Of a DNA stretch of 64,000 bases, positions 10,830 to 55,356 are shown piece after piece. How positions within the stretch are numbered: position 1 is the first letter of the stretch; every line of letters starts with the position of its first letter. The notes under the pieces were generated by a model. That model made no database searches, was not told the DNA's origin, and saw only the letters and a program-made list of their open reading frames with translations. The stretch is from Lingula anatina. Taxonomy: Eukaryota; Animalia; Brachiopoda. Where the stretch lies: the NCBI GenBank assembly GCA_051362555.1, contig CM120643.1, forward strand, positions 22,386,848 through 22,450,847, given 5' to 3'. Made by a program: the position numbers and the translations under genes.

Positions 10830-11966
10830 TCATATTTCAAATCTCAAGAATTCTTTAATTTTCTTGGGCAAAGGAAGCCTTGTAATGTTATCAGAGCGAG
10901 TGTTCCTCAGAATGACCTCACGACAGGCATCTTGAAGAGTAGACACTGAAAAGAAAAAATATGCATTTCATTACATAATCCGGTTCATTAAACAACATTA
11001 TGTAAGATTTACAATTAAAATATGCATCTGCAGTTTTCTTTTAAAAATTTATCATTACTTTTATTCCACTAAATTCTTAGTATTACCAAAAACACAGCAT
11101 ACAAAAATTAGCTTTAAAATTCCAAATGCCTTTACTAGTACCTGAAATTGCTACCATTTTAATATCTTTTTACAAATTTAGATTTGGACATTTGCTAATC
11201 AGTATGTTTTAAATCTACAAAAGAAATTAATTTAGTGCTCATCAAGCAGGGATCATGAGCCCTGAATTTTACCTGAATATAACTGGATGATCCTGACTTG
11301 TTTTGTGGTCCCATACACATCCACCACAGCATGAACAGGGCCATCTTGATATGGTATGTCCTTTGCACAAGCACCTTGGTCTTCCCCATTGATTATAAAG
11401 TGCATATCTGCCTTATTTTCCCCTGTCAACACATACACCACACCAATACGACTACCTATGTCAGTGGGGAGAAAACTCTCGTCTGTGTCCTGTAGCGATA
11501 CCCCTTGTCTGGGCACAGGACGAAGTAAACTGTTTTTAAAGGTGCCTTTACTGGTATGAACATAGTCCCCTTCACCAAGTATTGACTTGGGTCTGTGATC
11601 GTCACTTGTTTCATCATCCAGTTCAACAGCTGAGTATACACGGTTGTGGGACTTAGTGATAGCAAATATCCATGATTTCCCTAAATTGGACAAGTCTGGC
11701 AGTGCATATTGTGGCAGTTCAAATCCGTCATTCGGATCGTGTTGTGTTAATCCTATTCTCATATGTCCACTCCACCCACGCTCATTTTTTTCTATTTCAA
11801 CCAGAAATATTTCTCCTGGTTGAAGAGGTTTTTCACTAAAACTGATTGCATGTGCAAAGCTGCTTTCCCGAAATGCAACTGAATTGTCTTCAAAAAGGCG
11901 AATATTTTGTCCATGGTAATTATGAAAGCGAGCCCCAGGCAATGCGGAAAGACACGTCGAGCTCAT
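10830..11966 (-). CDS. NEURL2: Neuralized-like protein 2 (Ozz-E3; NHR domain + SOCS box)
   Basis: Coding exons 11966-11273 ([24 protein letters not shown]...[16 protein letters not shown]...[12 protein letters not shown]...[20 protein letters not shown]) and 10945-10830 ([12 protein letters not shown]...[20 protein letters not shown] box). Acceptor at 11980-11981. A probable 5'UTR exon ends at 12713 (GTAAGT donor). Confidence 0.92.
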
Positions 11967-12819
11967 TCTCACTTGTTTCCTAAAATGTATTGTAAAGAGA
12001 CTAATTAAACAAAATACACGGGCAGCAGCACTACATATAATATACTGCCAAACCTTTACTTGTACCAATCTCTGCCTAAAAGGTATTTATATACTATAAT
12101 CAAACACAATCTTTCACTGCTAAAATTTTACAAGGAAAAAATTCTCATAAAATCAAGGTTTACGTAACAAACTTCCTCAAACACCTGTCACGGACAACCA
12201 GGGAAATTTCCAAGTCCATTTTACTACCTTTTACTTCACCAATCAATATTCCGCCCAAAATATGAGTCAAAATCACCATCTCTGTCATCAAGAAATACCA
12301 GTGTCTGAAAAACCAATTAATCATAACGTCTCACACAGAGAAGGTCTGTCAAGCACATGGTTTGCTCTTTGCCATGTTTGCACATTGCATGCAAAGGTCA
12401 AATAGTATCCATTTGTCATTTTCTTCACAACAGTTCAAGTGATAATGAGTAATACTTATGTGACATATTGAATGAATTCAGACCCTCGTCAGTGCCTCTT
12501 CTACTGCCCTCAAGTTGAAGTGGCGGTGAAGAATTAAGATAAGAAAATCTAAATCAATGAATATTCACTGCGGAGATTTGGATGGGTACCTTCAACTACG
12601 ACATTTGACAATCTTGCAAACATATTGGTACAGTGCTAGACTCAGTGACTGCGATATTCCTAAGAAATATTTCCTTTTCATGATGCATCTTGGTACAAGA
12701 AACCTCACTTACCAATCTGACTTTCATTTGCAGAACAACATCCACCAGTTGCGTTCTACACTACAACGTAACATTCCATTGTTTGCGGTGTGTTTTTTTC
12801 ATGGAGCTTTTTCATTTCC

Positions 12820-13018
12820 TAAACTTTGTGTGTTCGGATCTGTAATTGGTTAGAGGATGTGTCCTTGATTAATGAACCAATCAAAATTGCTCTAACAAAA
12901 TCTCACGGAGCCAGTCCCCAAATCGTTTGTAGTTTCGGACAAGGCAGGTGGCGGGATGTAAAGGCGAATAAAGAAGGACAGAATGGTATTTCACTGAAAT
13001 TTCATTTATTTAAACACC
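12820..13018. promoter_or_regulatory. Putative bidirectional promoter NEURL2 / SEH1L
   Basis: Short CpG-enriched interval between divergent first exons, with ATTGG (~12845), CCAATC (~12877) and GGCGGG (~12950). Confidence 0.5.
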
Positions 13019-14996
13019 ATGTTTGTCGCGCGAAGCATTCCGGCCGACCACAAAGATCTCATCCACGATGTGGCTTTTGATTTTCACGGCCGGCGAATGG
13101 CAACATGTTCAAGTGATCAAAACGTGAAGGTTTGTACAGAGAGGGCATGGATTCAGTTCTGATGGTGGTTGAGGGAGTGGGGGTGGTGGTGGTGGTGGGG
13201 GGCATATTTTATTTTCTGGGGATCATAAAATAAATGCATTTTCTACCATGCAAAAACACAAGTATAGGCCTAGTCATGGAAAGATATTATTTCGGTGGAC
13301 CCATAAAGTAAAAATTAATAGAAAGTTAACAAAAATTAAAAGTATTTTAACTAAAAGTTCATCACCCAGCCACCTTGTATTCATTTACAGTCTAAATATT
13401 TCCTTGTGTTTTGTTTCAGGTTTGGGATTTAGGAGAAGATGGACACTGGACGTGCACTGCTAACTGGAAGGTGAATTATATTCAGATAACTTGTCCACAG
13501 TTATCGCACTTTTACACATGATCATCAGTATGCTATTTCAGTGCTGCGTGGGCTAAGCTGTACCAAACTTGGGTGTCAATCACCCCATTTTCATAGATTA
13601 GATCGACCTACTTTAGATGGACCTAACTCCCTGGGGGTTCACGCTAAATAGCTGTCAGCTGGGCGGACACGAAAGTTAATTATCCCCTTACAGCTTGTAG
13701 TAGGCGGGACGGACATTTAAGTCGGATTATCTGAAAGTAATCTAGTGAGACTCCCCGCGGGGATAGATCGATCTAAAATCTATGGGAATAGAGCCAATGA
13801 ATCAGTATATAAACCATCCCAAACAACATAGAATACCACACAGGTCTACTGTAATGAAAAAAAAAAAATTAAGAAGTATTTTAACAAATTTAAGAAAATC
13901 CCCCTATACCAATATATGCCATACTGTTTTTATTCAGTATTACATTGAACATGATTAAATGCAGCTAATGCATAATAGACCTTTTTAGAGAAATAACATT
14001 TATTAAAATTTCAGCAATGAATTGTCTATTAAACACCAAAGTATAACCTTTTCAAATCATTGAAAAAATATTATCCTAAATCACATTTTTGCACTGACTA
14101 TGTTTTGTTGTAAAGTACATATTTGTTATCAAGATGCAACATTTATTTATTAATACAAAAATTATGCATTCAGCTTGATTTTCAGAAATTTCAGGTTTTG
14201 TTTTTTTTTATGTTATTAACAAAATGTAGCTTCAAAGGGTATAAATACATTTCGTTTTAGAAAATTCTATGAGTGTTTACTGCTGTATGTAATTAATTAT
14301 CATAGAAATGCTTAAAAGGCGTTACGTTTATCAATTGTGTCAGTTACATCAAACTTAAATGATTGTATTTTTTTATTTATTATTATTTTATTTAATTAAT
14401 TAATTTATTTTTTCACTTATACAAATAAGCAACAAATCATTGAAATACAAAGTGACAGCGGTATTAGCTGTTAACAATTTGACTTTGTAGACCCACAGTG
14501 GCTCTGTCTGGAAGGTCACCTGGGCCCATCCTGAGTTTGGTCAAGTGATAGCAACCTGCTCATTTGATAGGACAGCAGCAGTGTGGGAGGAGCTAGGTAT
14601 GTGATGTCATATGTTACATGGGGTATTTGAATGACAGCAATAAAGGAGGAGTATATCATGTGTCACAGTGAATGGACAGCAGTGTGGGAGGAGCTAGGTA
14701 TGTGATGTCATATGTTACATGGGGTATTTGAATGACAGCAATAAAGGAGTATATTATGTGTCACAGTGAATGGACAGCAGTGTGGGTGGAGCTTGGTATG
14801 TTAATCATCCATTGTAAAATAGTATTGGGATAGTTTTGAGTGTAAAATATGGACTTTGAGCCTCATTTTTTTTCCATATCAATGTTTAAATAATCATTAC
14901 TTGTATGAAAAATAAAAACAAAAATTGTAAAAGAGAGCCCGTTAGCCACTTCTACCTTTTACTAGTACTACTATTTTAGGCTTCTGCTTCCAGCTG

Positions 14997-15053
<57 letters not shown>

Positions 15054-18000
15054 GATTTTAAATGATTAGCAGATTCCTTACATAGAGGATAGATCATCTA
15101 ATATTGTAAATAATTGGATTGGCTTCCAAAGTCCAGCTATAAAAATTAAAAAAATTAGACAGTGCCAGAGCTCATCATGTAGTATCACAGCTGATATGCA
15201 ATATGTTAAAATTTCTATTCCTGGATTTAACCCTTTGCTCATTATATTGTAGTTGGAGAATCTACAGAACATGGGCAGAAGAACTGGGTCAAGAGGACCA
15301 GTCTGGTGGACAGCAGAACCTCCGTCACAGATGTCCAGTTTGCTCCCAAACACTTGGGGCTACAGTTGGTAAGTGGACCCAGCAGCCACTTGTGAACTGG
15401 CATAATTTACTTTTTGTGTAGGCTGAGGTTTTCTCCTCTATATAGAATGCTATGTTTTTTATTCTTTCTGAATTCCTCAATTAGTGAAAGAGAGAAAGTA
15501 GATATTTATCCAAGGATTTTTTTTCACATAAAGGATGATAATGAAGGCAGGGCCTAAAATTTCTGATTTACTTCCAGTAATTTCAGAAATAATGCATTTG
15601 CATTTAATTGGTATGAAACTAAAAAGAGTGGAGACAGACACTATCTTGCATAATTGGCAGTGGGTTGCCATATTGTTGCAGAAGATTTAAAGGATGTCTT
15701 TCCGCTGTAGACGCTTAAATAGGCCTTTCTCTGAAACTTTACCTATTTGATCCTGAACCCCAAAGCATGTCTCACACGAAACCGTTGAGAAAATAAAGGT
15801 CGAGGTATAGGTTTTTAAGATCACTTAAAGAAAAAAAAGCGCAGCATTTTTTTTTTCGTCTAAACTTCTCGCCATTACTCCCCTACGCATGGAATTCTGG
15901 GACTTGCCTCAATTTGCATATGACTGAATACTACTGTTTACTACGCTCTGGAGAAGACCCGGATGTCACTGCAAACCAAGATGGAGGGTAGTCCGAGTAC
16001 ACGTGAGTTGAAAGAGAGAAGAATAACTCTACGGGACAATGAAAAAGGAAATAAAACGGGAAATGCAGAAGCAGAGGATGTTATTTTCATTGGCAGGCCG
16101 GTGAGGTAGACGAAGCAGAAGTAGGAAATAAAACTGACAAGCGAGAAACTGACAAAATTCTGCCGGATACGGGTAGGTTATTTCGATCTCTTATCACGTC
16201 CGACTCTTTCATTGAGAACATATTCAGGAGGCGGATTTAGGGCGTCTTCTGGTTCTTCCGGAAGACGGTTAGATTTTCAAGTTTTCATTGGCGGGTATAT
16301 GTAATATTTCTGTCGAAAGGCGGTCAAAAATGGAGGATGGATCAACATTACTCGGAAGACTGTCAGAATAGACCTATATCTCTGGATCCGCCCCTGTTAT
16401 CCCTGCTGTACGCAGAAAAGTTTATTATTCTTTAGAGGAGTCAGTACAAACAAGGATTGAGCTAAATAGTCTTCTATTAAAGACTGGTTTTTGTCGGCTT
16501 ACTTAAAGTCGTTATATACTCAAGTCCAAAAAAAAAAAAAAAAAGAGAAAAAAAACAACCTTTCACTATTTACCTTATTCGAATTTAATTTAAATTAAAA
16601 GATTTAAAGCGAGCACATTAATTGCAGCATCTGATGGTAGTAAATGTTTATTCTCTGTTTATGTTTTTAAAGTTGACTTCATGGGGAATCTCTGGAGAAT
16701 GAGGATAATACACTGGTATATATATTTTTTATCCAGGTAATATGCATGTGGTAACATCTACCCCTACATCAGGTTCAAGGCCAACATAGAGCCAGAGCCA
16801 AAGTAAGTACCTGACACCCAGAATCCAAACACACAATAGCAGTTTATTTTACCATGTTCAGTACACCTTGCCATCAATATCAATCTAATGCATGTTAGTA
16901 CTTGGAACAATGCCATTTTATTATAAAGTATAACACTGCCGTGGCAGCTAGTCCTAGAATTGTGACAAGCACAGGATATCAGTACTTATTGTGGGGAACA
17001 TTATATAATAAATTGGATTTTGAAACAAATAATTTTGATAACCATGCTCTATTCAGTGCTCTTATGTCTGGCGTAGACATTACAGATAGTGGGTGCTATT
17101 AATTTCACAAAAAAATGCATTGAAGTCTTTCCAATAGTCAATGTTTTGTTTTTAGGTATACTAAGCAACAAAGCAAGCACTCAAAATCATGGATGACAGT
17201 AAGACCTCAAGCTGTTACATAAACAATTAGCACAAATAAAGGTACATTCCAGTCTTACAAACCAGGAATTTGACGTGGGAATTACAAGTACACATTTCTA
17301 AGCAGCCATGGTGCAGATGGAACCAAGAGACTCAAGGCACCGTGGTCCTTATATGTATATAAGAATTTTTTTATCAAAATGATGATTACCTCACATAAAC
17401 TTTTCTTTTATATATCCATCCAGACATACATTACTTCCTTGTATGACATTAACTTTTAAAATGATTGATTTTATGAACAGATTGTGTACAGAGTTGCATT
17501 TTACTTTTGATATGAGAAAGGGATAAATGAAAGCACCTTGTTTTTCTATGCCTTTATTTTTTATGTTCACTGAATGGTTGCACAAATTACAGTAGAATGA
17601 AAAGAATCCTTCTACTCAGTGACTTGCATATTACAGGTCTTATGAATGTTTGGTCAGTAAACTGATACTCATGGTAATAGTTATTCTGTGATTTTCTTCA
17701 ACGTGAAGTAATCCAGCAAATTCAACGGCAGTCAAAATGTAGGGGACATTACAGTGAGTGGGAGATGGGCCAGTCCCATCTCCACTGATGCTGAGTCATT
17801 GCTTGGTAAATTCTCTAGCAAAAGCATCTTTATATCCAGTGCAAGGCCAGGATTTCCATCACACTTGTCACAATGTATTCAGCACTTTCCTTGGCAACAC
17901 CATCATTTTCTTGGCAACACCATCATGTATGCTCTGATAATGAAAAAAAAATATATATTCACTTTTATATCTGTCATTTCTGTTTTGATATGTACAATAG

Positions 18001-21000
18001 CTTACTTCAAAAATAAAATATTTGAAAATGTATGAACACTAAAACAACCATAAGGACTGGATTTCACACCACCAAATTTTATCGAATAAATTTACTTTGA
18101 AAATAAGAAGGAATATGAATGGTGTTTGTGTATTGTGAGAAACTTAGAATTTATCTTTTCAATAAAGATTTAATGAGTTTTATACCTCTTCTGTGAGTTA
18201 CTGAATTCTCCTTTCATGTTCTTGAGTCAATCCTCCTGATCTCACACCTCTTCCAAGCCTTGTACTACTGGACCTAGAAGTGCTATGTATCACTGCCAAC
18301 TCTACTAAACCTTTATACAGGGCTTTTTTTCTAATGAGGCTGACATCACAAGATAGTATGCTGTAAAATAATAATAAAACTAATAATAATAATAATTGGC
18401 ACTGATTTAATTGCATGCTAGTAATAATGTTGTGAACTGTTCAAAATGGGTTTCACTTCAATTAATCATTGTCCTGCACTCAAGCGTATCAATTGTTAGC
18501 CCTAAACTATAAGTTTTTTGTATGTGTGGATTATTACATGTGAATATAGGTGAGGGTAAGGTGGTTACTACACATTACTATCAAAACTAAGGAATATGCC
18601 AGATTAACTAAAAGGCCTGTATTATTTAAAAATAACAGAAAACTCTACCTCAGGGAGCTCTTTACCCTCTAGTTCTGGACTGCTCCGACTGCTTGCCTCA
18701 TCAACAATAGGCCTACTCTCGATCTGAAAAGTATAAAAACAGATCGACTAGAAAAGCAAGATAAGATACGTGTGTGCGTAGCACAAAATTCAGGCACTCC
18801 TATTGACGATTTTGACATCTGCACGATGCTCACCACTACTGCCAGTAAGTATCAAAATCGTCTGGAACGCATTTGTAGTCCGTGCTACGCTGTGCGTGCA
18901 AATAGCGATGTCAAAATTGCGGCTCAGAAAGCATAGCAAACAACAAAAAAGTAACAGTCGTTCATAAATATCCAACCGAAAAGGGCTGGTTCAGTTGACC
19001 CGAAAAATATCACTGTCTCTAATCATGTCACCGGTATATTTCCTGATACAAGTCACTCATTCGGTGAATCGGCATTGAGAATTACGGCATCAAGCACTGT
19101 TGACATAATAGGCTACACTCCGTCGTAAATATTTCCAAGCCATTCGTTGATTTTTGGACTATTTTAACCGACGAGAAGTTAAATGAATTCTTTAAATGTT
19201 TAAGTGCACAAACCTGTTCACGAACAATAAAGGGGGAGAGTTTTAACTAACGTGCATCTGTAAACGACTTACTTCGAACTCCACCGCGCCATATTTGTTT
19301 CTCCTAGTGTACGAGAGCTATTTTAGGCAACGCACTCTGATTGGCTAAAACCTTGCGGTTGTCGTCTTCTCTTTTTTGGGGAGAGGACGTTCTCCAATAC
19401 AGACTCGAATGTGAAATAATTAATTATTTTGATTGCCGTCTACCTCAAAGGCGAATTTTGGTTTAGATCGTGACCTTCATATATAAGAAAAAGTTTGGGA
19501 TATGTTTTATTTTCCCTCATATCGGAAAGACCCCCTTTAAGTTTTTATTTATATTTTATTATTTTCATTTCCACTTGTTTTTATGGAAAGTCACTTGCTC
19601 AGTTTATGTTATGATTGTTAGAATGAGTTATTTTTAGTATGACTTATTTTATTATATACCTGAAGGCCACATGTTCAGCTGATGGTATTGTTCGGATTTA
19701 TGAAGCACCTGATGTGATGAACCTCAGTCAGTGGTCGTTACAACACGAGATATCCTGTAAACTCAGCTGTAGCTGTATATCATGGAACCCTTCCAGGTAA
19801 ATGTAGGGGCGTGCTGAAAGCATTGTAATTTTTTTTCCAAGTCCCAAAACTGATTAACTTTGGCAAAAGAAGATTTGAAATTATGATAATGATATGCTGA
19901 TTTCAGGGGTTTGGTGAAACTTTTGTTATTTGGCTGAAATGAAAAAAAGAAAAGAAAATTGGTGATCCAAGCATTATATTTGTTTCATATTTTGAACAAG
20001 TTAACATGTTTGATTAAGAGCTAAATATAATCAGAAATCAGAAAAAAACTTTTTCTGTGGAAAAGTGGAATTCTGCATTTTTTAATTCAATCCTGATAGT
20101 TCCTGAGATTGACCAAGGTTAGGTCCCACGATAAATGTTCAAAGATTTTTTTTTTAAACCTAGGTTCATGTCTGTATAATGTTTTCCAATGAATTGTATG
20201 CCTTCCATTCTCTGTACATTGATGATGTTTTTTAGGGTTCACCAGCCAATGATTGCTGTAGGAAGCGATGATGCCAATCCATCAGGGGGCGGAAAAGTAC
20301 AAATATACGAGTACAATGATAATTCAAGGTAAACACAAACACAGATATGCATGCGGGAACATACGTACACACACCTTATTAGTACATAAAGGTATCAGTG
20401 AAAAAATGACTTATTATCATTGTGATTAAAAAAGCCTTTGAATTAATTCAGTTTTACTTGTTTTTGCCTCAACAGCATGTTTCAGTTAAAAGTGTTGGAG
20501 AAGTTACAGGTGCAGTTGCACATACTTTTATTTGTTAATATAAATAAATGGGTGAAAAAAGTTGCGTACAGAAAAAGATGTTTTGGATTGGAGAGGAAAA
20601 ATACTGTGCCCAGGGATTTAGACACTGGGAGAAATTCAAAAGTAATATTTCTTATTATTTACAGGAAGTGGAGTAAAGTTGAGACAATCACTGTGGTAAC
20701 TGAGTCAGTGAAGGACATCCAGTTTGCACCCAATTTAGGCAGATCTTACCACTTATTAGGGATAGCCTCCAAAGATGTCAGGATTATTTCCCTCAAGCCA
20801 CTCAGGTAGTAAATTTCTTTTGCTTTAATGATTGGATTTTACTCTCGCAATATTTAAAAAGTCCAGTCATCAATCCAGTAATTTTACTGTCTGTATGATT
20901 TAAAGCGTATTTTCTTTAAGCTTTGATATTTTATTTCCATTCACATTATTTTAGGAGAAATCAATCTTCAACCCAAATTTCAAGTCACAGTAAATTTGAG

Positions 21001-27000: not shown

Positions 27001-27763
27001 ATTTATGATAACAAATTTGTGGTTCTTTAGCTTTTTATTATCTTTTAAAGAATGAACAAAGAAATAGTAGTTATCAAACATTTATTTTTAAAAATTATGC
27101 AAGAAAGATAAAAAATGTCACCCCATATTTACTTTTAAATCTGTAATTACATTAAAGGTGGGGAGAACTCACTGTGCCAAGAATGAAATGAGACTAATCT
27201 GTCTCACACCAGGAGTGTTTCACAAAAGCACTTTAGCCTGGAAATTGCAACCTTAATTTTAAGTCTACTTTAGCCAAAGTTAAGGCAGCAGTAGTCCAAT
27301 TAGAATCATACAAATATTGTGTCCATTTCATAATGAGGAATATGTGACTAAAATAAACATTTCGGGCAAATATATCATTGAAGTTTACTAGAGTACTTTG
27401 GATATATCATGAATGGAAGTAGACTAGTTCTTTGGTCTAAAAGTTTTAACATTGAAGACCCAATGTTCAGTTATATGTCAGGTGTTAAACTAGCCCCTGG
27501 GCCTTCATACTGCTTTCTTAATCTACATCTTGCCACTTGTCACACTCTGTCACAAACCATTAAAATATCATCAACATCTGACTGCACTATAAACAGTAAT
27601 GTGGAGACTCTCCATTGTTTTCTGCTCTGTACACAGTGAGAGAAAAACAATCAATGCAGTTGTCAATGTGACAGTTGTATTGCTTTTGGTCTCCATAATT
27701 CAATCCAAAGAGTGTTACCTCTTCTAAGAGCCAAGGCATTTTGATAATATGTCTAAAATTCAT

Positions 27764-30700
27764 TCAGTCTGCTAGGGGATTGGCATGTATTGTCACAGTT
27801 TGTATTTTAATGTCATTTAATGGTCGGAATGTCTTTTCCGCTACAGGTTGTTTTTCTATTTCATCCAGGGTATCAAAACCATCTATCACTCTGCAATTAA
27901 AAAAAAAAACACTTGTTTATCAGGTGGTAATTTTGTGCATGTTACGATACTTTTAAGTCTTCAAAATCATTTAACTTTTCCAGATCTTATGTAAACAGTT
28001 GTAAAATGTCTCCAAGGCAGGAGAGAATGACTTTCAGTGGAAGTAAAAATTGTCAGTTGCCTCATACAACAGAAAACTGCAGATTACCAAAGTGACTGGC
28101 GTGTACGATCCCCCTATGTGTTCCTTACTGTGCATGTGCATTGCAATACAAATATAACAAATAAAGATAATGTAATTTAAAAAAATGAAAACTTCCTTCC
28201 AAAAATACAGTCTGACTGCAAACCATCCTAACAGGTTTCCTTATTGGCTATCTGCATTGCAATAAAAAGATGAAGAATGTTTTATAAGGACCTACCTTCC
28301 AAAGACGGCATACTTCATATCTAAATGTGGCTGTTTTCCATATGCAATGAAGAACTGCGAGGCATTTGTGTTGGGGCCATTGTTTGCCATAGACAGCGTA
28401 CCCCTAGCATTATGCTGAATGAAGAAAAAGAGGTGACTTTAAAACATCTCTTGGAAATAATTCTTGGTTCCTCACTTGTCAGTAGACCCCGGATTTTCAT
28501 AATGCACAGTATAAATTCATTTCAAAACCTTGAAAGATTAAATTGTCACATGTCAATATTTCAGCGGCTAACAAGAGAACTTCACCAGGGAATGAGGCTC
28601 TGATGAGAATGTTTTGTTAGACACTAAAATACTGGGAGACTTCAACACATTTTTTAAAAATGACCCACTTTTTTTTGACCAAGTGGGCCAAAATGGCCCA
28701 GCCAGATTTTGACCCAGGAAGATCCCTGGACTTGGAGTGTTAATATCTCTGGAGTTTTTTTGTTGTTTAAAGATTCTGTTTCTGTTAATAAAATTACCTT
28801 TAGACTCTCATGGAATTCATCCTCAAACTTTCTCCCCCAGATGCTGTCTCCCCCCTTGCCTGTTCCAGTGGGGTCCCCAGTTTGAGTCATAAATCCTTTG
28901 ATATTTCTGTGAAACACAGAGCCATTGTAGTAGTCGCTGGCACACAAGGCTAGGAAATTCTGAAATGAATAACTGATTTCATCATTATCATCATGATAAC
29001 GTGAGGTAACCTCACATAAGCACTGACAAATGTGAAGTAAAAAATCTTATTGTTCACTAATAATAAAAGTATTTACTTCATAATGTTTGTCCCAGGTAAA
29101 AATGTATCTATTTTTTTCTTACTGCATAGAAAATAAACATGTTGGAAGTTCAATAAATTTCTTTCACTACCACACGACTCAGAAGAGGAGTTGGAGTTTG
29201 TGTGCAACCAACAATCACCCACACACTTCAAAGCCACTTTTGTGAGGAAAAAAAAACTTGTACAGCAGATGAAATTCTTAAGCAAAAAAAATTTACCAGC
29301 AAGCTTTTAATTCCGAAGATATTTCATTAGTAGACTAATCTGTGGTTAAGTCAATACCTTCCTCAATTTGTGTGGTACTGAAACTAGGGATTGATCAGAG
29401 GGGCACCCCTTACCTCACAAGTCTTGGGCACCTGTTCACAGAACAACTCAACTTTCAAGTCTCCAAGGTCTGTGTGGAGAGTCACTGCCTAAAAATTAAG
29501 GGAAAAGATAAAAGCTAAATACCATTTCTATCTTAATAATATCATGTAATAAGTACATAACTGCAGTCTGAGGCAGTTTTTCCAACCATTCTAACCATTC
29601 TGCATTTTACAGCCTCCAAATATGAATGAGGTACCGGTATGAAATTTTGTATGGATAGTTTTTGGTCTTTTGATCTTCCATCCAAAAGGTGGTAAATAAA
29701 ATTGCCTATGTACCAACACCAACATAACAGTTCACTTACACAGTGGCCATTCAACTTAAACCTTTAATCTGTAGCACACTTCTGGCTATGTCACTGGCAG
29801 TTTTGAGAGCACTAATTCTTGTAGCAGCCAAGTCTACCACAGAGTGACCAGTGTTGGTCATTGTATTGGTACACTGGTCATCTTTCGGAAGACTGAACTT
29901 AAAACTGGTAACAAACTGGTCCAGTGCCTGGAACACATGGGCTGAGGAGCAGCAGAACCTTTGACTGATAATCCGATGGCTCTGTCTAACATAATCCTTG
30001 AGGTGGTTCACCATGGCCAGCTCCCATGCTCCAGCTCCTGGGAGGACCCTGGGTGTGGCCAGTGCCAGTTGAAGTGTGTCAATCACAGCTTGACACGTCC
30101 ATTTCAGTTCTTCAAGACACTCCTCCTGCCTGTTACACAGCACAATTGAGCCGACCTCACTTGCTGATCTATACATATGCAAGTATTTCTGCATTCCGAG
30201 TATCTTAATCCCCAACCCATCCAGCTTTCCACTGTACTCCTCACACCACCCTTGCAAACTACCAACAGGTGTCGCTCCAGTCAGTTCTTGTAAAGCAGAA
30301 GTGGTCTGGAGACCAAGTCTGTCCAGGACCACCACTCCATGCTGATGTAGATACTGTGCTACCCTGCTGTCTATTACTTTCTGACAGGCTACAAGTCCTA
30401 TGGATGAAGCCACCCACTGCTTGGCTAAGCCCATCAGGGCACTGATCACAACATCACTGGATCTGCAGGGTGCAACCACTGAGCGTGAACCACCCTCTGG
30501 TTCTGAAGTTGCAATGGGGTCAATTTCGGCATCTTGTCTTTCATCTCGGCCAGCAATATAAGACTCAGCATCCAGGTGAATGACATCCGATGTCATTTGA
30601 TAGTCAGCTGAGACAAACTCCTCGCTGTCTCCAACCATCGAAATTGTCACCAAGGCCAGCCTGAGGGGTTGATCGCATGGAGTCACCCTGTGAACTGTTG

Positions 30701-32098
30701 AGAGTCTGTACAGAACCCCTGGTATGTACTCACTCTGCTGCACTGGCCGGCCCTCTAGACACACATAGGAAATAGTATAGAAGGCCCTATGACTCCTCAA
30801 TGTGTCATCAGTATTAACACAGCCTAAAAATGCTTTCAAAAGCAAAGCACCCAAGTGGGTTTTATCCCTTAGCATGAGGCAGCAGCCAGGTTTAGAGTCC
30901 AGAATGCCACCAATCATCCCCAGCATGGATTCTATACTGGCCACATCTAAAGTTGTTTGGAAAGACGTTAAAAATTCCACACACAGTGTTGTGAAGTGAT
31001 TATACAAATCACCCATTACACGCGGGTGCATGTCCAGATTTCTTACACCAAGAACGAGCCTTGATGCAAGTCCTGCAGCAAACAATCCTCCGTCACTAAA
31101 TTTCTGCAAATGACTGTCCACTGCTGCTATAATAAGCTTGACTGCAGGAGAGGAGATGGAGAACACTTTCAAAAGCCTCCCACATGTTGAAGTCAATGTC
31201 ACATGACCACCTTGTGAGTTTTGGATCATTTTTAGTTTCCCATACGGACCAAAGGATGAAGTTACCAACTGATGGAAGATGGCAAGGGAATCTAATTGAC
31301 CCGATTGTTTAACTAGACTGGATTTGGACTGCTGGACTAACTTTTGGCCATACTGATCAGCTGCAGGATGCTTCTCTGCATTCTGCAAAGACAAAATAAC
31401 AAATATTCATTATCTTATCTTGCACTTTAATTGATGACAAAGAGAGCTAAGTGACATAACTCTTTTATGTTTCCTGTGTATTTGACAAATTTTTCCAGCA
31501 TAAAATTTAGACAATTTAAGAATAAAAACTTGTATATCTGCTATATATTACACCAGTAAATAATACTTTTTTTGATAGAATATATACATGCATGATAAGA
31601 CATGATAATGAACATTGTTTTTTGTCTTTCTGAAAATGCAGCATTGGTCGTTCAGATCGCACTTTAGATGGACGATTTGATCATTATGATAGCTATAATG
31701 TAGGTGAATACGGTCAGAAATAACTTACACATTTTCACAGGAAAGGAGTGCTTTACAACTATAAATAATTCTGTTTTGATAGTGATAACTCAAATTCTTA
31801 TCTTCATTGTATTTTATCCAGTGCGCATTTTCGCAGTCTTCGAAGTTATAATTGGATATAAGCAACAGATAATTTACATACCACCCCTCAGCTCTAAAGG
31901 AAGTAAACATACTATGATAATCAGATTAGTCTTCATGGCAAACTTCTCTGTGACGTGAGAAATGGAAAGAATCGGTGAATTCTTTCATTTCTATCAACAA
32001 AGATTATTATTATATTAGAAAGAAAACAACGTCATGGATCAAACTCGTCCCAGATAATATTAATGATGGCATAAATGCCCCGCTGGTATACCTACCAT
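27764..32098 (-). CDS. PPIL3: Peptidyl-prolyl cis-trans isomerase-like 3 (cyclophilin PPIL3)
   Basis: ATG-only coding exon 32098-32096 (ATG|gtagg), then exons 29488-29414, 28959-28798, 28414-28296, 27890-27764. Translation [63 protein letters not shown]...[23 protein letters not shown]...[24 protein letters not shown]...TIHANPLAD*. Confidence 0.95.
29751..31382 (-). CDS. MKKS: McKusick-Kaufman/Bardet-Biedl syndrome 6 chaperonin-like protein, single coding exon nested in PPIL3 intron 1 (same strand)
   Basis: ORF of ~543 codons with MKKS-type motifs: [85 protein letters not shown]. The ORF-track start at 31394 is a TTG inside the polypyrimidine tract; the exon starts at acceptor tttgcag|AAT (31382). 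Confidence 0.9.
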   Translation of the reverse strand, partial: NAEKHPAADQYGQKLVQQSKSSLVKQSGQLDSLAIFHQLVTSSFGPYGKLKMIQNSQGGHVTLTSTCGRLLKVFSISSPAVKLIIAAVDSHLQKFSDGGLFAAGLASRLVLGVRNLDMHPRVMGDLYNHFTTLCVEFLTSFQTTLDVASIESMLGMIGGILDSKPGCCLMLRDKTHLGALLLKAFLGCVNTDDTLRSHRAFYTISYVCLEGRPVQQSEYIPGVLYRLSTVHRVTPCDQPLRLALVTISMVGDSEEFVSADYQMTSDVIHLDAESYIAGRDERQDAEIDPIATSEPEGGSRSVVAPCRSSDVVISALMGLAKQWVASSIGLVACQKVIDSRVAQYLHQHGVVVLDRLGLQTTSALQELTGATPVGSLQGWCEEYSGKLDGLGIKILGMQKYLHMYRSASEVGSIVLCNRQEECLEELKWTCQAVIDTLQLALATPRVLPGAGAWELAMVNHLKDYVRQSHRIISQRFCCSSAHVFQALDQFVTSFKFSLPKDDQCTNTMTNTGHSVVDLAATRISALKTASDIARSVLQIKGLS

Positions 32099-32260
32099 AT
32101 TATATGATTTGCGTCCGTTTGCCGACCCAAGAATAACTGTGAGGACAGTCGGCGGTGACAGTCGCCGTCGTTACATGTGCGCGGACCCTGGGACCTCGTT
32201 TTGAGTGAACTTCCTGTTCGAGGAAGCCTAAAAGACGGAATACGGAAGCAACGGAACAGA
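32099..32260. promoter_or_regulatory. Putative PPIL3/MKKS promoter and 5'UTR
   Basis: CpG-rich patch directly upstream of the ATG exon, with several ETS-like GGAA motifs (acttcctg 32209, ggaagc 32222, cggaagc 32243). Confidence 0.5.
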
Positions 32261-34436
32261 CTAGATCAAATGAGAGTTTAAAGATACAAGTGACTTCTTC
32301 AAACTTCGAACTATAGAAAACTTATCTGGAAATAGGTCTTTTGTTACCATGAACGTGAACTCTGTAACCAACATACAACAGGTGGATGAATTTCTCGAGA
32401 AAATCTGATACAGCTGCAACCAGATTCCATCACTGAAACTGAAAGTGAAACAAGCACACCGAATTCATTCTTTTGCACAACTATCTCCAATTCGACAAAG
32501 AAAGTGAGTTCTTATGCGGATAAAGGGGACGGCCATGGAAACAAAATGTTGTATCTGAGAAAAAAATTGATTGTTCTGTCATATTTAAGCAGACAATGTA
32601 CGTGTTGCAAAAATAAACTTACAATACATGTCGCACATGTACCACCTCCTGTCAGCAATTTTACTCAAAATACATACATCTCAGTATTTAACAGTGCACA
32701 AGTAATAAGAAGTAAAAGCAAACGATTTCATAGAATCTTTGGGGCATGTGCATGGCACTTCGTTGATTTTGTATATAATTCTCAGTTCTTTAAATTTTTT
32801 TTTCACAATGTAGTACGGGCATTGTGTTATATTATGCTAAAGATGGTTTTAGTCGAGATGACAGCCGGGCGTGTGCTAATTACTTGGGTCAGTAAATTTC
32901 ATATGCCTTTAACTATCAATAGTAAAGACTTAAACAATAAAAACCTTAATTTTACCGGTTGTTCGTATAAAAAAATATTTCAAAGTAAAAATACTTCAAA
33001 AAAGGTAAAAAGCCCTGCAAATTTGAGAAATGTTATTATTAAGATCAGTTAATATTTTTATCATAATTACTAATATTAAAAAAAATAGCAATTTTCAAAA
33101 TTTTATTCATGCTACATGTGACGCAGTCATAATCAAACAGTGTACATAATTTAAAAAAATGAAAGGAAACATTAAAAGCTCAGACATAATGAGTACTAGA
33201 AGTTATAATTAGGCAGGAATAATCATCACCATCTCTTTTAATGCATTAGATGCAAGTGAGTGCAACCAAGTCTTTAGAGAGTCTCGTCGTACTTTTGGCA
33301 CCCCTGTCATTGTCATTATGGTCATTGCCACGGATGCTTTTTTGATCTTTTTTGTACCCACTGCAGACAGACAGACCCAAACACATAACCCTTCAGATAT
33401 ATGATAAAAACTTGAAAAATTAATCGCTTAAAAATTAATAATATTTTAAAATGCATTAATCTGACAAGACCATATTACATGACAAACTTTTCAAAATTAT
33501 CGAGAAGCCCATTTTTATGTTTCACAACATTTTCAAAGAGAAATAAAAATTATGTTGGTGGAGAATTGTCTTCCAAAAAGATTTTTAAGGCTGACTAAAT
33601 TTTCAAGTTTTTACTGTACCCTCACCAGTAACCAGCCTTCCAAAGAAGTTGCCGGCATTGTGTGTTGTGTGCCACTGGCTAATGCTAACAGTGTATTATA
33701 ATTTTATATACAGAGTATAATGTAATAGATATTAATGTATAGATATAGTAAAATAGATATAAATTTATATAAAAGATATAAATAGCATCTACCAATTATA
33801 AGAATGTATACCAATATGGCAAAGAGAATTAAAATTTATAAGCAAAAGTATGATAAAAAAACTAGATATAATCACAGGTATTTGGGATATTTTGGTTAGA
33901 AAGATTATTTTAATAATCTGTAAGATATGAATCACATTATACAAAGAAATCACAGCTAAAATAGTTCTGAGATCTGACCATAGACATACAGTTCATACAA
34001 GTGTTTTAAAATTTTCATCAAAATTATTCATTATTTTAGCATGTGCTATTAAACTGACAATTACATATTAAGGAAATTGGAATGTTATCTAAAATATATC
34101 ACACCCTACTTTGATGAAAAATAATTGAGTTTGATCAGATTATTGTTCTACATGTGAGAATGTATGAAAATAAAATAAACTTGTAAGTATAGTGCATTAT
34201 ACTATAACACAAAACTTCATGTAGAGGAATGAACTTGTTAAAATACTGGACCACACAGTGCCATCAATAAAAAATTATTAATTCAAGTGTCCACTTGCAG
34301 CAAAGTGATCAGCTTGTGTGAAAAGTGTGAAATTTCAGTTCCTTTTTATTTATCGATCTTGTCCCAAGTTCTCTGCCGGTACAAATGTCCACTCAATAAT
34401 ATCATGTCCAGACTGCTAAGTACAAGTGGTCACTTA

Positions 34437-34685
34437 GGCTGCATTCACATGAAAAATCTATTTTCTAAAAATCTAAAAATCTATTTGCAGTATCTTGTGA
34501 TCACGGTCTGTGCCCTGAATACCCCACGGCGTAATTACTGTCAGCGCCAAGAATTAATTACAGCTTTGGAAGTAACTGGCTCGCGCTGTTCATAATTACG
34601 CCGCAGGGTATTCAGGGCACAGACCGTGATCACAAGATACAGCAAATAGATTTTTAGAAAGTAGATTTTTCATGTGAACGGTCCC
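34437..34685. mobile_element. PIF/Harbinger-like hairpin MITE
   Basis: Arms of ~100 bp (ttcacatgaaaaatcta...gtatcttgtgatcacggtctgtgccctgaataccc / gggtattcagggcacagaccgtgatcacaagatac...tagatttttcatgtgaa), GG..CC ends, TTA on both sides. Confidence 0.85.
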
Positions 34686-45889: not shown

Positions 45890-46277
45890 GGTTACATCCC
45901 TATACGTCCCGATACTCCCCCGCACTGATACATCCCCGCACCAGTTATACTCCCCTGCACCGATACTCCCCCGCACTGACACTCCCCCTCAGGATCGAAG
46001 CAAGGAAGCAATAATGTGGGGGAGTATCGGTGTAGGGGAGTAACGATGCGCCTACATCAGCAATTTTACTGGGGATGTATCGGTGTGGGGTCATATTGAT
46101 GCACATCATACACAGAAATTTACTAATTAAGGGGGGATTATTGGTGCGGGATCTATCTGTGTGGGCTTGTATCGATGCACATAATACACAGAAATTTACT
46201 AATTAAGGGGGAATTATTGGTGCGAGGCAGTATCATAGCGGGGGAGTAACGGTTTAGGGGAGTATCAACTTGACCCC
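45890..46277. mobile_element. Foldback-like non-autonomous DNA element with subterminal repeats
   Basis: Repeated gatactcccc(c)gcac on the left, inverted ggggagtatc on the right, a ~62-bp internal duplication, flanked by gaagaata / gaagaatt (candidate 8-bp TSD). Confidence 0.6.
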
Positions 46278-46293
46278 GAAGAATTAATAGAGT

Positions 46294-46466
46294 AATTTTT
46301 TTTCAATCAACAGCCAATTAAATATTTAAATTGTTTACCCCCAATATTTTGATGTCTATCTATGTTTGCCTGGATAGCCCCATTCCCTGATGAAGATACT
46401 CTGGCAGACATCAAAATATTGAAGGTAAACAATTTCAATAATTAGCTGTTGATTGAAGAAAAATTT
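46294..46466. mobile_element. Hairpin MITE
   Basis: ttcaatcaacagc.aatta...aaattgtttacc..caatattttgatgtct / agacatcaaaatattg..ggtaaacaattt...taattagctgttgattgaa. Confidence 0.75.
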
Positions 46467-51577: not shown

Positions 51578-54500
51578 TTATCCTTTGACTTCACTTGGCA
51601 GAGGCCTTCCCTCTACCTCAGCCAAAACATTCTCCAGCATCAACATCTCCATCTTTCTCCTCGTCTCCACTGTGGCAGAACCTGTGTGAGGCGATATGAT
51701 AATATTTGGCAGCGTGAGGAGGGGGTGGTCCCTGGGGAGAGGCTCTGGGTACGTCACGTCTAATGCAGCTGCCTTAACGGTCTTATTCTTCAGTGCGGTA
51801 TACAGAGCTTCTTGGTCAATAATCTTTCCTAAAAAAACAAAGAAAAAAAGTGACTCAAATATGCTTTCATGCAAAATCACATTTTCACTTTTTTGCTATT
51901 ACATGTTTTATTAAAATTAATTTAAAAATATGACATACAATATCTCAGCCAACCTATGTAATTCACTAAAAAGCTGACGTTAAGAAAATTCTTTTGCATC
52001 GATTTTCCAAGAATCAACCAATTTGAAAACAAAATGACACAAGCAAACAAACAAAATGGTACCCACTTTTCATAATTGCTTCCTTACTTGAGTACCCCCC
52101 CCCCCCCCCCAAAAAAAAAAAAAAAAAAAAATTATCATCTCACCTCTGGCAACATTGATGATTGTAGCACTTGGTTTCATCTGTTTGAACCTAGCCTCAG
52201 AGAACATCCCGACCGTTTCTGGGGTTTGTGGACAAGCTATGATGAGGTAGTCACACTTGGGAAGCAGTTCTTCCAGCGAGGCACAGTATGAGGCCCCTAC
52301 AGCAGACTCTTCTGCTGTACTCCTGAAAACAATTAAATGTCACTGATTATTTATCAATTTCTTGCTAGTGATATGTAGTGTTTTATTTACCTCTGCGTCA
52401 TGCGTAAAAAACGCATGAATCCTAAAATTGACGCAAAAAAATATGATATTGTGCGTCATTTGACCCTAATGTATGACAGCCACAACTAATTACTTTCAAA
52501 AGTGTTGTAATATTGCCGATTAAAAACCTACTAATAGGCCTATTTCCGATCGTTGTTGTGTTGCAAAAAAGTATGTCAACTTGCCACCGATAGTACACTA
52601 CTAGTACAATGCTGCTATAGGCACAATACGGGTTTTTTAATTCAATTTAAATATTTTATTGTGTTTTAAGATCCAAATGTAATTGGTTTAACATAAAAAA
52701 CAGTTTAGTCCGCAAACTGGTGACAGAGATTACTCTAAATGGTTAAAATATGTTACACTACGTGTATAAAATCACAGGTGTCTAGTATTGTGTTTTTATG
52801 TTTAATAGTCAAAACATAATTTTTCCAGATTGGAATATAATTTGTTATTGCCATAGTAATTATCTATTGAAATTCCTTGTCTTCATTTATCTACTTTTTT
52901 TGTGTTTGACAATCTTATTCCCTCCTATATAAATTGTTTTCCATTTATGTCCATATAATTTTTGAAAATTTTTTTACATACTAGTCAACACAAAGTTTAT
53001 CCATATCAATTTTAATTTATTGTTTATCTTGATGATTTTTTGTTCATATATCTACCTTTAGGTTAAATCATGTTAATAATCCTTTGTTTTAACGTTTTTT
53101 TTTTTAGAAAACAAAATCAAAATGCATACTTTTGTCCATATCATTTTGAAGTTGTATGACTATTAGTGTGTTTGTTGTCATATGTTGAATACACTTATAC
53201 AAAAGCTGTTTTTTTTTTTTTTTTTTTTTTTTGTATTCTTCAGTTCCTGTAGATAGAATTCTATACTTTAAGTCTGGAATACAACAATTACAAATAAATA
53301 ACCTCAATTCATATACAATCTATTTACATAATATATGGTTGTACGCATCATTACTAGTTAAAAATTACCCATTCCAAAAAGGCAGGAAAATTTTGACTCC
53401 TGAAAATAAAAAATGACTCGTAATCTGCAGTGTCAGCGAGTCATCTGACTCTCTAGTTCCAAATTGTAAATAAAACACTGAGTGATAACACAAAAAATCG
53501 GACTTTTCAATTAATTAAAGTGTAAAAAAACACTGACCAACAGATAATTATTTTGTTAAGAATAAATCTTAAATTAGTAACCAAACAAGCTTAAGGTCTG
53601 GATCTAACAGAACCTGAGGTATAGATTGCTCATTTTTAAAAAGTTAGGAGAAGACTGAGGATGTATATGCTTGTCTGCTCTTTTTTTTTACATTTTTAAA
53701 TTTATGTATTTTATATAAAAATTATTACCAGTACCTTCTTTTCCGGTTGTGGTAATAAATGTTCATCTGGAAAGCCTTTGCTCTCTGCGCAATCTTGAAT
53801 CCAATTCCTCCCATCCCAACAATACCCAGTGTGGCAAAGCAGACATCATTACCAAGCCAGTTTTGGTTCAGTTCTTGGACTGGTTCTGAACCCATGGCTA
53901 GCTTGACACCTACAAATAGTATAAAACAAGCCTGTTAATTTATAGTATAAAAAAAATCATGTTGCTCTTGATTAAAAAAGATATCTCAGTATCAAGCATA
54001 CATGTACTACGTAGTACCAGTCAAACAAAAGGCAAGCAACACAAATTTACTTCTCTGCACATTCTTAACATATATCATATGCAGACCAATAATAATTTAT
54101 ATATGTAACAAAGTCAATTAAATTAAAAAACAAACAATACCCAGTACAGTGGAGGATTTAGAGGGGGGTCAGGGGGATCCTAACCCCCCCCCCCCCCCCT
54201 TCAATTTCTGGTCCCCTTTTAAAATTATAATTTTGACTAGCTGAATCTTAGTTCTAAACCATACCAAATGGCCTCTAAAATACCAAAACTTTTCGGGGCC
54301 CTTCATCGGATCCCGAACCCACACCAAGTTGGGGGGGGGGGGGGGGGGGGGGGGGGAAGCTTCGCATCCGCAGACCTCCCCTTCAATTAAAAGCTTAATT
54401 TGGACAAAATGTGTGAGTTAGCACTCTTATTTACATCTTCTGATATGTATTTTAACTGGTACAGCCAGTACATTTCAGAAACTGCAAACAGGAGTGCTGA

Positions 54501-55242
54501 AGTATTAATCTTAAGCTTGTTAAAGTTAAACTAGCACGAAAATTCATGCATTAGCACTCCTATTGACGATTCTGATGTGTACTGTCTGTGCACAGACAGT
54601 ACATATCAGATTCATCAATAGGAGTGCTAACACATGAATTTCCGTGCTAAGTTTAACATGCATTCCCACACAGTCAGAGCTAGTGTGCATGAAAAAGTAC
54701 TTGTGCATATTTGAAATTGCACAGGGGTCTGGACCACTTAAAGCAAAAAAGCGCCACAATAATATCTGATTTTCAATTCGTATTGGAAAAAATATCTGAT
54801 TGAGATTCACATCGGGGGAGCCACAGAATTAGACACCCCCTCCCCCATTACCTGGAATAAGGTTTCTTGCAGACGCCAACATCAATGTCACAGCCATGTC
54901 GGCAACGGAATCGCAGAGAACATCTGGGGTATTGGCAACTTTAACTCCAAGCTGATTGTATTTCTTAACATCTATATGATCAACCCCTACGCCATTGTTG
55001 GCGATAATTTTCAAGTTTGGGAGCAAATCCAGCGTATTTTCCAAATACATGCGTGAACCACGGACTAAGGCACCAACGATGTTTGCTCCTAAAATTGGAT
55101 TTGCTACAAGATCTTTATGGCAAATGATGTCAAAGTGTTTTTCGACCCTTTCACAAAATTCTGGGTTAAATCCTTGCGTCGGATCGTCTTTCTGCCTGGC
55201 GTGGATCCACACAGCCGGTCGTGGTTTGTCAATTTCCGCCAT
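51578..55242 (-). CDS. D-isomer-specific 2-hydroxyacid dehydrogenase (glyoxylate/hydroxypyruvate reductase or 2-ketogluconate reductase-like)
   Basis: Exons 55242-54852, 53909-53735, 52322-52144, 51828-51578. Motifs GVGVDHID, VANTPDVL, TLGIVGMGGIG (NAD-binding), YHNR, INVARG (Arg), ALDVTYPEPLP (Glu), SPHTGSAT (His). Confidence 0.93.
54147..54385 (+). mobile_element. Degenerate CAGTGG(C/A)GGATTTAG-type MITE remnant with poly-C/poly-G tracts
   Basis: Left terminus cagtggaggatttagaggggg resembles the 16226 terminus. Right terminus not clearly found. Confidence 0.4.
54525..54657. repeat. Near-perfect loopless palindrome (TAGCAC MITE family)
   Basis: ...tagcactcctattga....tctgat.tgtactgtctgtg|cacagacagtaca.atcaga....tcaataggagtgcta... 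Confidence 0.85.
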
Positions 55243-55356
55243 TTTTTGGTGTCACGTGATCTGAGCGTTGGAAGCCATATTGAAATTCACAGCCGCGATT
55301 TGGAAGAATTTAATGACCAATAATACTTTTCATGGTTCAGAAATCAACGATCTACG
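55243..55356. promoter_or_regulatory. Putative compact bidirectional promoter and ZFAT first (non-coding) exon
   Basis: E-box GTCACGTGA at 55251-55259, GGAAGCCATATT, + strand donor ACG|GTAGGT at 55357; the reductase ATG is at 55242 on the - strand. Confidence 0.5.

Follow-up and report, generated by a model that had tools for sequence, protein, structure and literature searches.

The whole MKKS/BBS6 gene of the brachiopod Lingula anatina is spliced in or out as a single exon of PPIL3

Several pairs of unrelated genes are known to start from a common promoter or first exon. In insects, Su(var)3-9 forms one large exon (>1450 bp) within a conserved intron of the strongly expressed housekeeping gene eIF2gamma, with which it has promoter and start codon in common; it is the minor splice form, its arrival by retroposition has been proposed, and the age of the fusion is put at about 400 million years (PMC1435931). 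FlyBase lists 10 pairs and 1 triplet of 'genes with CDS overlap' (CDS, coding sequence), for example Rpb4/Ada2a (PMC4528330, section 8, File S2), and in humans CPNE1/RBM12 is joined by 23 further promoter-sharing pairs (PMC2568002). Here we describe a locus of this type in a 64,000-nt stretch of the genome of Lingula anatina (assembly GCA_051362555.1, contig CM120643.1, positions 22,386,848 to 22,450,847; hereafter the window), in which the whole gene for the chaperonin MKKS/BBS6 is spliced in or out as a single exon of the cyclophilin gene PPIL3. The arrangement had been proposed from the sequence and is confirmed here at the RNA level.

As in Su(var)3-9/eIF2gamma (PMC1435931), an unrelated guest occupies a conserved intron of its host as a single large exon and has promoter, first exon and in-frame start in common with it, which for Lingula is seen at the RNA level. 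The two systems differ in the number of shared residues, about 80 in the insect pair versus one in PPIL3/MKKS, and in their 3' ends: Su(var)3-9 is made by 3' alternative splicing, forms with all exons being called artefacts in the account of that locus (PMC1435931), whereas in Lingula rejoining the host is the only 3' route seen. The FlyBase sets likewise have promoter, first exon and translation start in common between unrelated proteins; nine of the 11 give 20-162 shared residues and two give no length, so that these could be ATG-only, and the section and file cited are silent on shared 3' exons (PMC4528330). CPNE1/RBM12 resembles the Lingula locus in that a gene with one large coding exon uses the promoter and 5' exons of its host, but there the common exons are non-coding and the guest retains its own ATG, unlike Lingula MKKS (PMC2568002). 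Vertebrate MKKS is itself held down by conserved upstream open reading frames (uORFs), so that in both cases a message led by other sequence limits output, through uORF translation in vertebrates and through exon skipping in Lingula (PMC7530721). In the window we found no MKKS leader exons of the uORF type, although this is a weak test. A further comparable case is reportedly unc-17/cha-1 of C. elegans, where one gene is nested in intron 1, the first exon is common to both and the splice choice is said to need inverted repeats; unlike the Lingula locus, it reportedly has a non-coding common exon, joins two genes of a single pathway and gives the nested gene a 3' end of its own.

The sequence-only reading knew of no description of such an arrangement. 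This does not stand for the general type: as a shared start is already known for other gene pairs, the Lingula locus is a variant and not a new kind. It does stand for the ATG-only, host-rejoining case, which we did not find in the open literature. Nor did we find there any report of MKKS paired with PPIL3, or of MKKS in Lingula or other brachiopods (subscription papers and the supplements of Lingula genome papers being outside this scope), and Lingula is absent from the top 20 papers on BBS6 and the BBSome. What is new is the ATG-only shared coding sequence, the shared 3' end, the variable inclusion and a candidate stem at the splice acceptor.

Both genes lie on the minus strand, and all positions are those of the window (Table 1). 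The sequence-only reading took the first coding exon of PPIL3 to be a bare ATG followed by a splice donor, and the MKKS exon to open in phase 0 from that ATG and to close on a GTAAGT donor shortly after the MKKS stop; every coordinate it gave agrees with the sequence. The donor directly 3' of the ATG reads GTAGGT, the acceptor upstream of 31382 ends in TTTGCAG, and ATG and MKKS exon together form a single open frame of 544 aa. Between the MKKS stop and the PPIL3 exon-2 acceptor, a stretch in which no polyadenylation (poly(A)) signal had been noticed, none of 12 hexamer variants occurs, the first ones lying at 29328 and 29311 within intron 2. Splice joints follow the MKKS stop at 11, 86, 248 and 367 nt, so that three of them, as claimed, exceed 55 nt.

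The RNA evidence comes from eight (X12-X19) of nine raw-read runs labelled as L. anatina, from three studies (P5, P6 and P7), covering 6-26% of each run. Reads were matched at 90% likeness in one set and at 85% in a second set of four runs, and a joint was listed in X13, X14, X16 and X17 when at least three reads per run supported it. The three joints that had been predicted were all read. The skipping joint (32096>29488) is present in seven of the eight runs (47, 45, 61, 2, 9, 6, 0 and 3 reads in X12 to X19), with further loose-end reads from a divergent exon-1 allele (30, 20, 16 and 4 in X12-X15). The inclusion joint (32096>31382) was read 13 times in two runs, in frame, with 12 reads (8 starts) in X15, 1 in X18 and 0 in X12 and X19; in X13, X14, X16 and X17 it falls below the listing limit, the bin 31340-31459 having a depth of 0.72, or two reads over 43 exon bases. 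The X15 reads come from an allele with a second-codon substitution that leaves length and frame unchanged, and 3 more appear as loose ends. The joint by which the MKKS exon rejoins PPIL3 exon 2 (29740>29488) was read 12 times in six of the eight runs (0, 1, 1, 4, 3, 0, 1 and 2 in X12 to X19), and the intron 1b bin 29540-29659 has a depth of 0 in four of four runs; the MKKS exon is thus not an alternative 3' end.

Intron 1a is nearly as empty, with a depth of 0 across 31460-32059 in all four runs of the second set and across 31393-31774 in the first, and with traces in 31775-31965 (depth 0.35 in X15, 0.16 in X18). Because the flanking introns are nearly empty, both MKKS joints probably lie on one molecule. 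Two observations had been named as fatal to the proposal, namely a fifth A at 31342-31345, which would put the ATG at 31351 in frame, and transcripts with their own promoter and poly(A) site. The listed read variants include no indel at 31342-31345, where 13 of 13 X15 reads carry substitutions only, and none of them brings that ATG into frame; with no extra A and an almost empty intron downstream of MKKS, the reads lend no support to an MKKS-specific promoter or poly(A) site. The junction reads support, at the RNA level, the reading that skipping gives PPIL3 and inclusion gives MKKS from the common ATG, with PPIL3 exons as its 3' untranslated region (UTR).

Table 1. Features of the shared PPIL3/MKKS locus, in positions of the window.
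Feature	Position	Strand	Remarks
Shared first exon	32096..32200	-	5' UTR, with ATG (32098-32096) as sole coding bases; 5' end approximate
Intron 1a	31383..32095	-	713 nt, GT..AG, phase 0
Predicted stem, upstream arm	31597..31640	-	one half of an inverted repeat; predicted pairing partner of the downstream arm
Predicted stem, downstream arm	31377..31421	-	MKKS acceptor region: its pyrimidine tract and AG, plus the initial 6 bases of the exon
MKKS/BBS6 cassette exon	29740..31382	-	1643 nt; codons 2-544, stop TGA 29753-29751, 11 nt UTR, GTAAGT donor
Out-of-frame ATG inside MKKS exon	31349..31351	-	4 codons; 31 nt past exon start
In-frame insertion in MKKS, about 39 codons	30480..30600	-	low model confidence; read-covered, no joint
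Intron 1b	29489..29739	-	251 nt, GT..AG
PPIL3 exon 2	29414..29488	-	coding on MKKS skipping, 3' UTR on inclusion
PPIL3 exon 3	28798..28959	-	
PPIL3 exon 4	28296..28414	-	
PPIL3 exon 5	27100..27890	-	stop 27766-27764, coding to 27764; shared 3' UTR; 3' end approximate

Read depth over the shared exon 1 is 29-35 in the bin 32060-32179 and about 1.3 in 32180-32299 (runs X13/X14). Its 5' part (32099-32175) occurs as two alleles with many differences, the divergent one in about one third of the X13/X14 reads, and ATG and donor are intact in both; a start-stop (ATG TAA) stands at 32176. On the plus strand at 32250-32540, a few opposite-direction reads in the stranded run X15 suggest a head-to-head transcript and a common promoter region, with no Pfam match.

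The five-exon splice product of PPIL3 is identical to RefSeq XP_013396752.1 in 161 of 161 residues and is a single cyclophilin domain (Pro_isomerase, E-value 5.5e-54). The MKKS frame matches Cpn60_TCP1 in Pfam (E-value 1.2e-50), and among its 10 protein matches (23-31% identity) eight are named MKKS and two are unnamed, with no named CCT. In a thermosome-rooted tree, which held no BBS10 or BBS12 rows, it nests among animal MKKS, next to the Logan protein P0168 (support 0.955, 31% identity). The C-terminal insertion is shortened in two further MKKS proteins, P0168, which groups with Lingula, and P0145 (90 and 81 residues, respectively). The predicted structure is a full group II chaperonin subunit (predicted local distance difference test, pLDDT, 87.7; predicted template-modelling score, pTM, 0.84), and the best Foldseek matches to the model are group II chaperonins (template-modelling score 0.6-0.7). 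The ATP-binding motif of CCT, GDGTT, is replaced in MKKS; in Lingula SDGGL stands in its place, in which D97 and G99 hardly vary across 62 sequences. MKKS/BBS6 is reported to aid BBSome assembly together with BBS10, BBS12 and CCT.

Since the first internal in-frame methionine (residue 53) falls after the SSFGP motif (residue 43), an upstream ATG would be required, as had been argued; a start at Met53 would drop the helix 26-42 (pLDDT about 95 over residues 31-40) together with the GP.G motif. Counted from the shared ATG, this motif falls at residue 43, the median among 106 homologues being 38 (quartiles 35-41), and a proline stands at positions 4-9, as it does in 23 of 42 homologues of similar N-terminal length. 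An MKKS protein is likely to be made from the shared-ATG exon, and the MKKS and PPIL3 proteins likely share only their first methionine. No Lingula MKKS protein, nor any shorter MKKS piece, is among the protein-database matches, a statement at the protein level. Two other products were considered and rejected: re-initiation of PPIL3 at an ATG just after the MKKS stop would run out of frame past the read joint (5 codons), and for a PPIL3-MKKS fusion protein there are 0 PPIL3 matches in 159 MKKS-like proteins and 0 cyclophilin domains in the 7 long ones. Correspondingly, none of the 120 listed PPIL3 matches carries a chaperonin domain.

A comparison with 10 MKKS loci of other animals (L-series) bears on which gene came second. 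A phase-1 intron breaks L001, L002 and L004 and a phase-0 intron breaks L001, L005 and L007; both sites are contiguous in Lingula, at 30278/30277 and 30102, and 44 of 150 profile matches stop at the first of them. The intron after the PPIL3 ATG is widespread in relatives, to judge from PPIL3 starts in 118 of them: 52 begin with M followed directly by residue 2, in 37 the motif used is absent, 8 carry an extension that ends in M, and among the other 21 an acceptor-like run ending in Q directly precedes residue 2 in 15. None of the 10 other MKKS loci has PPIL3, or any other gene of the window, nearby, only L005-L007 having an upstream flank of >5 kb. Introns kept elsewhere are missing from MKKS, whereas many relatives have the intron after the PPIL3 ATG, so that MKKS probably came second, as a guest in its host PPIL3. 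Retroposition would account for the missing introns, and we give it an even chance of having brought MKKS there; transfer at the DNA level, of an exon that already had few introns and kept its native acceptor, we place a fair way below that. The latter is kept in play by an acceptor-like site 14-43 nt before the MKKS ATG in all five other loci tested, together with the out-of-frame ATG in the Lingula exon, a possible relic of the gene's own start. The human neighbour genes NIF3L1 and SLX4IP show no Pfam sign in the 276 of 527 window frames scanned.

The MKKS acceptor is predicted to be hidden in a stem. The inverted repeat whose arms are given in Table 1, a 264-nt element, folds at -63.3 kcal/mol (z -4.45; 0 of 200 shuffles as strong), with a duplex of -38.9 kcal/mol versus -18.6 to -24.0 at the four PPIL3 acceptors, and the mean unpaired value at the acceptor is 0.12 versus 0.41-0.58 at those four (0 of 500 shuffled introns). 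No further copy of the repeat lies within the window, and in five other MKKS loci the presumed acceptor showed no comparable stem (-13.8 to -20.9). As the stem was found after a scan for repeats and other strong inverted repeats lie in the window, it could be left over from a transposon, could act as a brake on inclusion, or could be both. That it keeps inclusion low by default we consider possible, at somewhat less than even chances. It is more doubtful that the 45-bp stem, perhaps a transposon terminal-repeat relic that also donated the acceptor, hides the MKKS 3' splice site until opened in ciliated cells or stages, so that this would be the only BBS6 message and ciliary chaperone supply would be set wholly by one splice choice. 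Elsewhere in the window, a very strong inverted repeat resembling a miniature inverted-repeat transposable element lies at 34480-34670 (duplex -77 kcal/mol), with others at 54200-54560, 45960-46360 and 44720.

With three joints, an open frame, near-empty flanking introns, absent MKKS introns and a widespread PPIL3 intron observed, we consider it very probable that two unrelated genes depend on a common promoter and on a first exon whose sole coding bases are an ATG. Skipping of the 1643-nt exon would yield the PPIL3 message, and inclusion an open frame for the whole MKKS/BBS6 chaperonin with PPIL3 exons behind its stop; MKKS would have arrived as an intron-free copy and would now rely on the host's start codon. 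Several observations weigh against parts of this account. The 5' inclusion joint is well supported in a single run (X15, 12 reads, with 1 read in a second), and X15 also shows a depth in intron 1b that corresponds to about two reads. For an arrival as an intron-free copy, no poly(A) relic or target-site repeat is convincing near MKKS, the longest A run in intron 1b being 5, though old insertions lose both; termite loci have lost one MKKS intron in place, and L003 (122-1834), a genomic or transcript record, holds an intron-free MKKS frame of 571 codons. The stem was itself picked after the repeat scan among other strong inverted repeats, and duplexes of equal strength are found at 16 of the 1591 window positions; for AT-rich positions the count is 2 of 494, and for acceptor-like sites 3 of 166, the MKKS acceptor included. 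In the protein, the insertion of about 39 residues is seen in 0 of 61 aligned homologues, the C-terminal cysteine-rich segment, a frequent but not obligatory feature of MKKS, is lacking (69 aa versus 81-261 in 61 homologues) and the C.CG motif, found in 46 of the 61, is missing. Finally, of the read variants within the MKKS frame in the best-supported rows of each table, 9 are synonymous and 14 non-synonymous, with a ratio of non-synonymous to synonymous polymorphism (pN/pS) of 0.47-0.63 (p 0.06-0.20). As pN/pS is not significantly below neutral, the insertion is unique and the cysteine-rich segment is lacking, selection may be relaxed.

The ratio of MKKS to PPIL3 is not fixed. MKKS depth relative to PPIL3 exon-3 depth is 0.005-0.009 in P5, 0.15-0.27 in P6 and 0.27-0.39 in P7, and the reads of the rejoining and skipping joints stand at 2:153, 7:17 and 3:3 (Fisher p 1e-5, P5 versus P6). 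The studies differ in tissue, stage, library and allele, and reads pooled in this way do not amount to replicates; inclusion confined to certain cell types would produce the pattern just as well as feedback or decay. That the MKKS share is lowest where PPIL3 depth is highest would suit a feedback circuit in which spliceosome-associated PPIL3 represses the exon, or in which inclusion transcripts are cleared by nonsense-mediated decay (NMD), and which would tie the supply of ciliary chaperone to the state of splicing, but a few ciliated, MKKS-making cells among PPIL3-rich others would give the same pattern. Human PPIL3 is present in the Bact and C complexes, yet its knockdown left all common targets tested in that report unchanged (PMC6315705). 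By its geometry the inclusion form is a candidate for NMD; at 15-39% of the locus depth in five of the eight runs it does not look efficiently removed. To our knowledge, junction-dependent NMD is not established in brachiopods. We regard PPIL3 feedback as a loose fit, equally explained by other causes, and as unlikely.

We think it quite unlikely that the MKKS exon is a decaying or redundant copy, its inclusion being splicing noise or a poison event that lowers PPIL3, with a working MKKS elsewhere or lost. The poison event would fit the three joints lying >55 nt past the stop (a mammalian rule; PMC3951408), and decay the pN/pS not significantly below 1, the lineage-only insertion and deletion and an MKKS share of <1% in P5; the 544 codons are nonetheless open, with no stop or frameshift among the variants listed from eight runs, the predicted fold is full and confident, and the share reaches the 15-39% just mentioned in five runs. 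MKKS depth per gigabase, moreover, spans merely 0.7-4.2 while that of PPIL3 exon 3 spans 3.3-154, and redundancy is countered by the lack of any other Lingula MKKS among the protein matches (at the level of proteins, not of the genome). It is highly improbable that MKKS behaves as an ordinary nested gene which in some tissue is driven by an intronic promoter of its own, ends at its own poly(A) site, or both, the PPIL3 joints being minor by-products: the traces of depth in intron 1a (X15, X18), the intron 1b depth in X15 and an X-box-like site with 1 mismatch at 31929 would suit it, but the rest of intron 1a is empty and starts no joint, no in-frame ATG precedes residue 53, the 12 rejoining reads come from six runs, and X-box-like sites of equal quality occur 17 times in the window, with nothing above background near the shared promoter.

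Within the locus, a short repeat in PPIL3 intron 3 (28645-28730) carries reads of both directions with unlike flanks and is likely a dispersed element, and a GC-richer hairpin with 24-nt arms (duplex -39 to -45) lies near the 3' end of the MKKS frame (29825-29900). This hairpin has one weak match to a microRNA family in Rfam, far under the cut-off. The neighbouring genes, assigned by Pfam, are a Neuralized-domain gene (11256-12086, minus strand), a WD40 gene (12998-20806, plus), presumably SEH1-like, a D-2-hydroxyacid dehydrogenase (51581-55251, minus) and a C2H2 zinc-finger gene (59559-63088, plus).

If our account holds, the locus would be a limiting case of gene sharing, with two genes using one promoter, one 5' UTR, one start codon and one 3' end, and with products that have a single residue in common. 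Genes of this kind are invisible to annotation, and MKKS of Lingula has apparently been missed; as protein searches return no Lingula MKKS, tables of presence and absence of ciliary genes can score a false loss. With one exon, a predicted stem and a stop followed by downstream joints, the locus offers a small testable model of how a relocated gene may gain expression at once, and it could also serve to probe whether exon-junction-dependent NMD works in spiralians. Phase-0 introns after ATG-only exons would be ready landing sites for whole open frames, and genomes could be screened for them.

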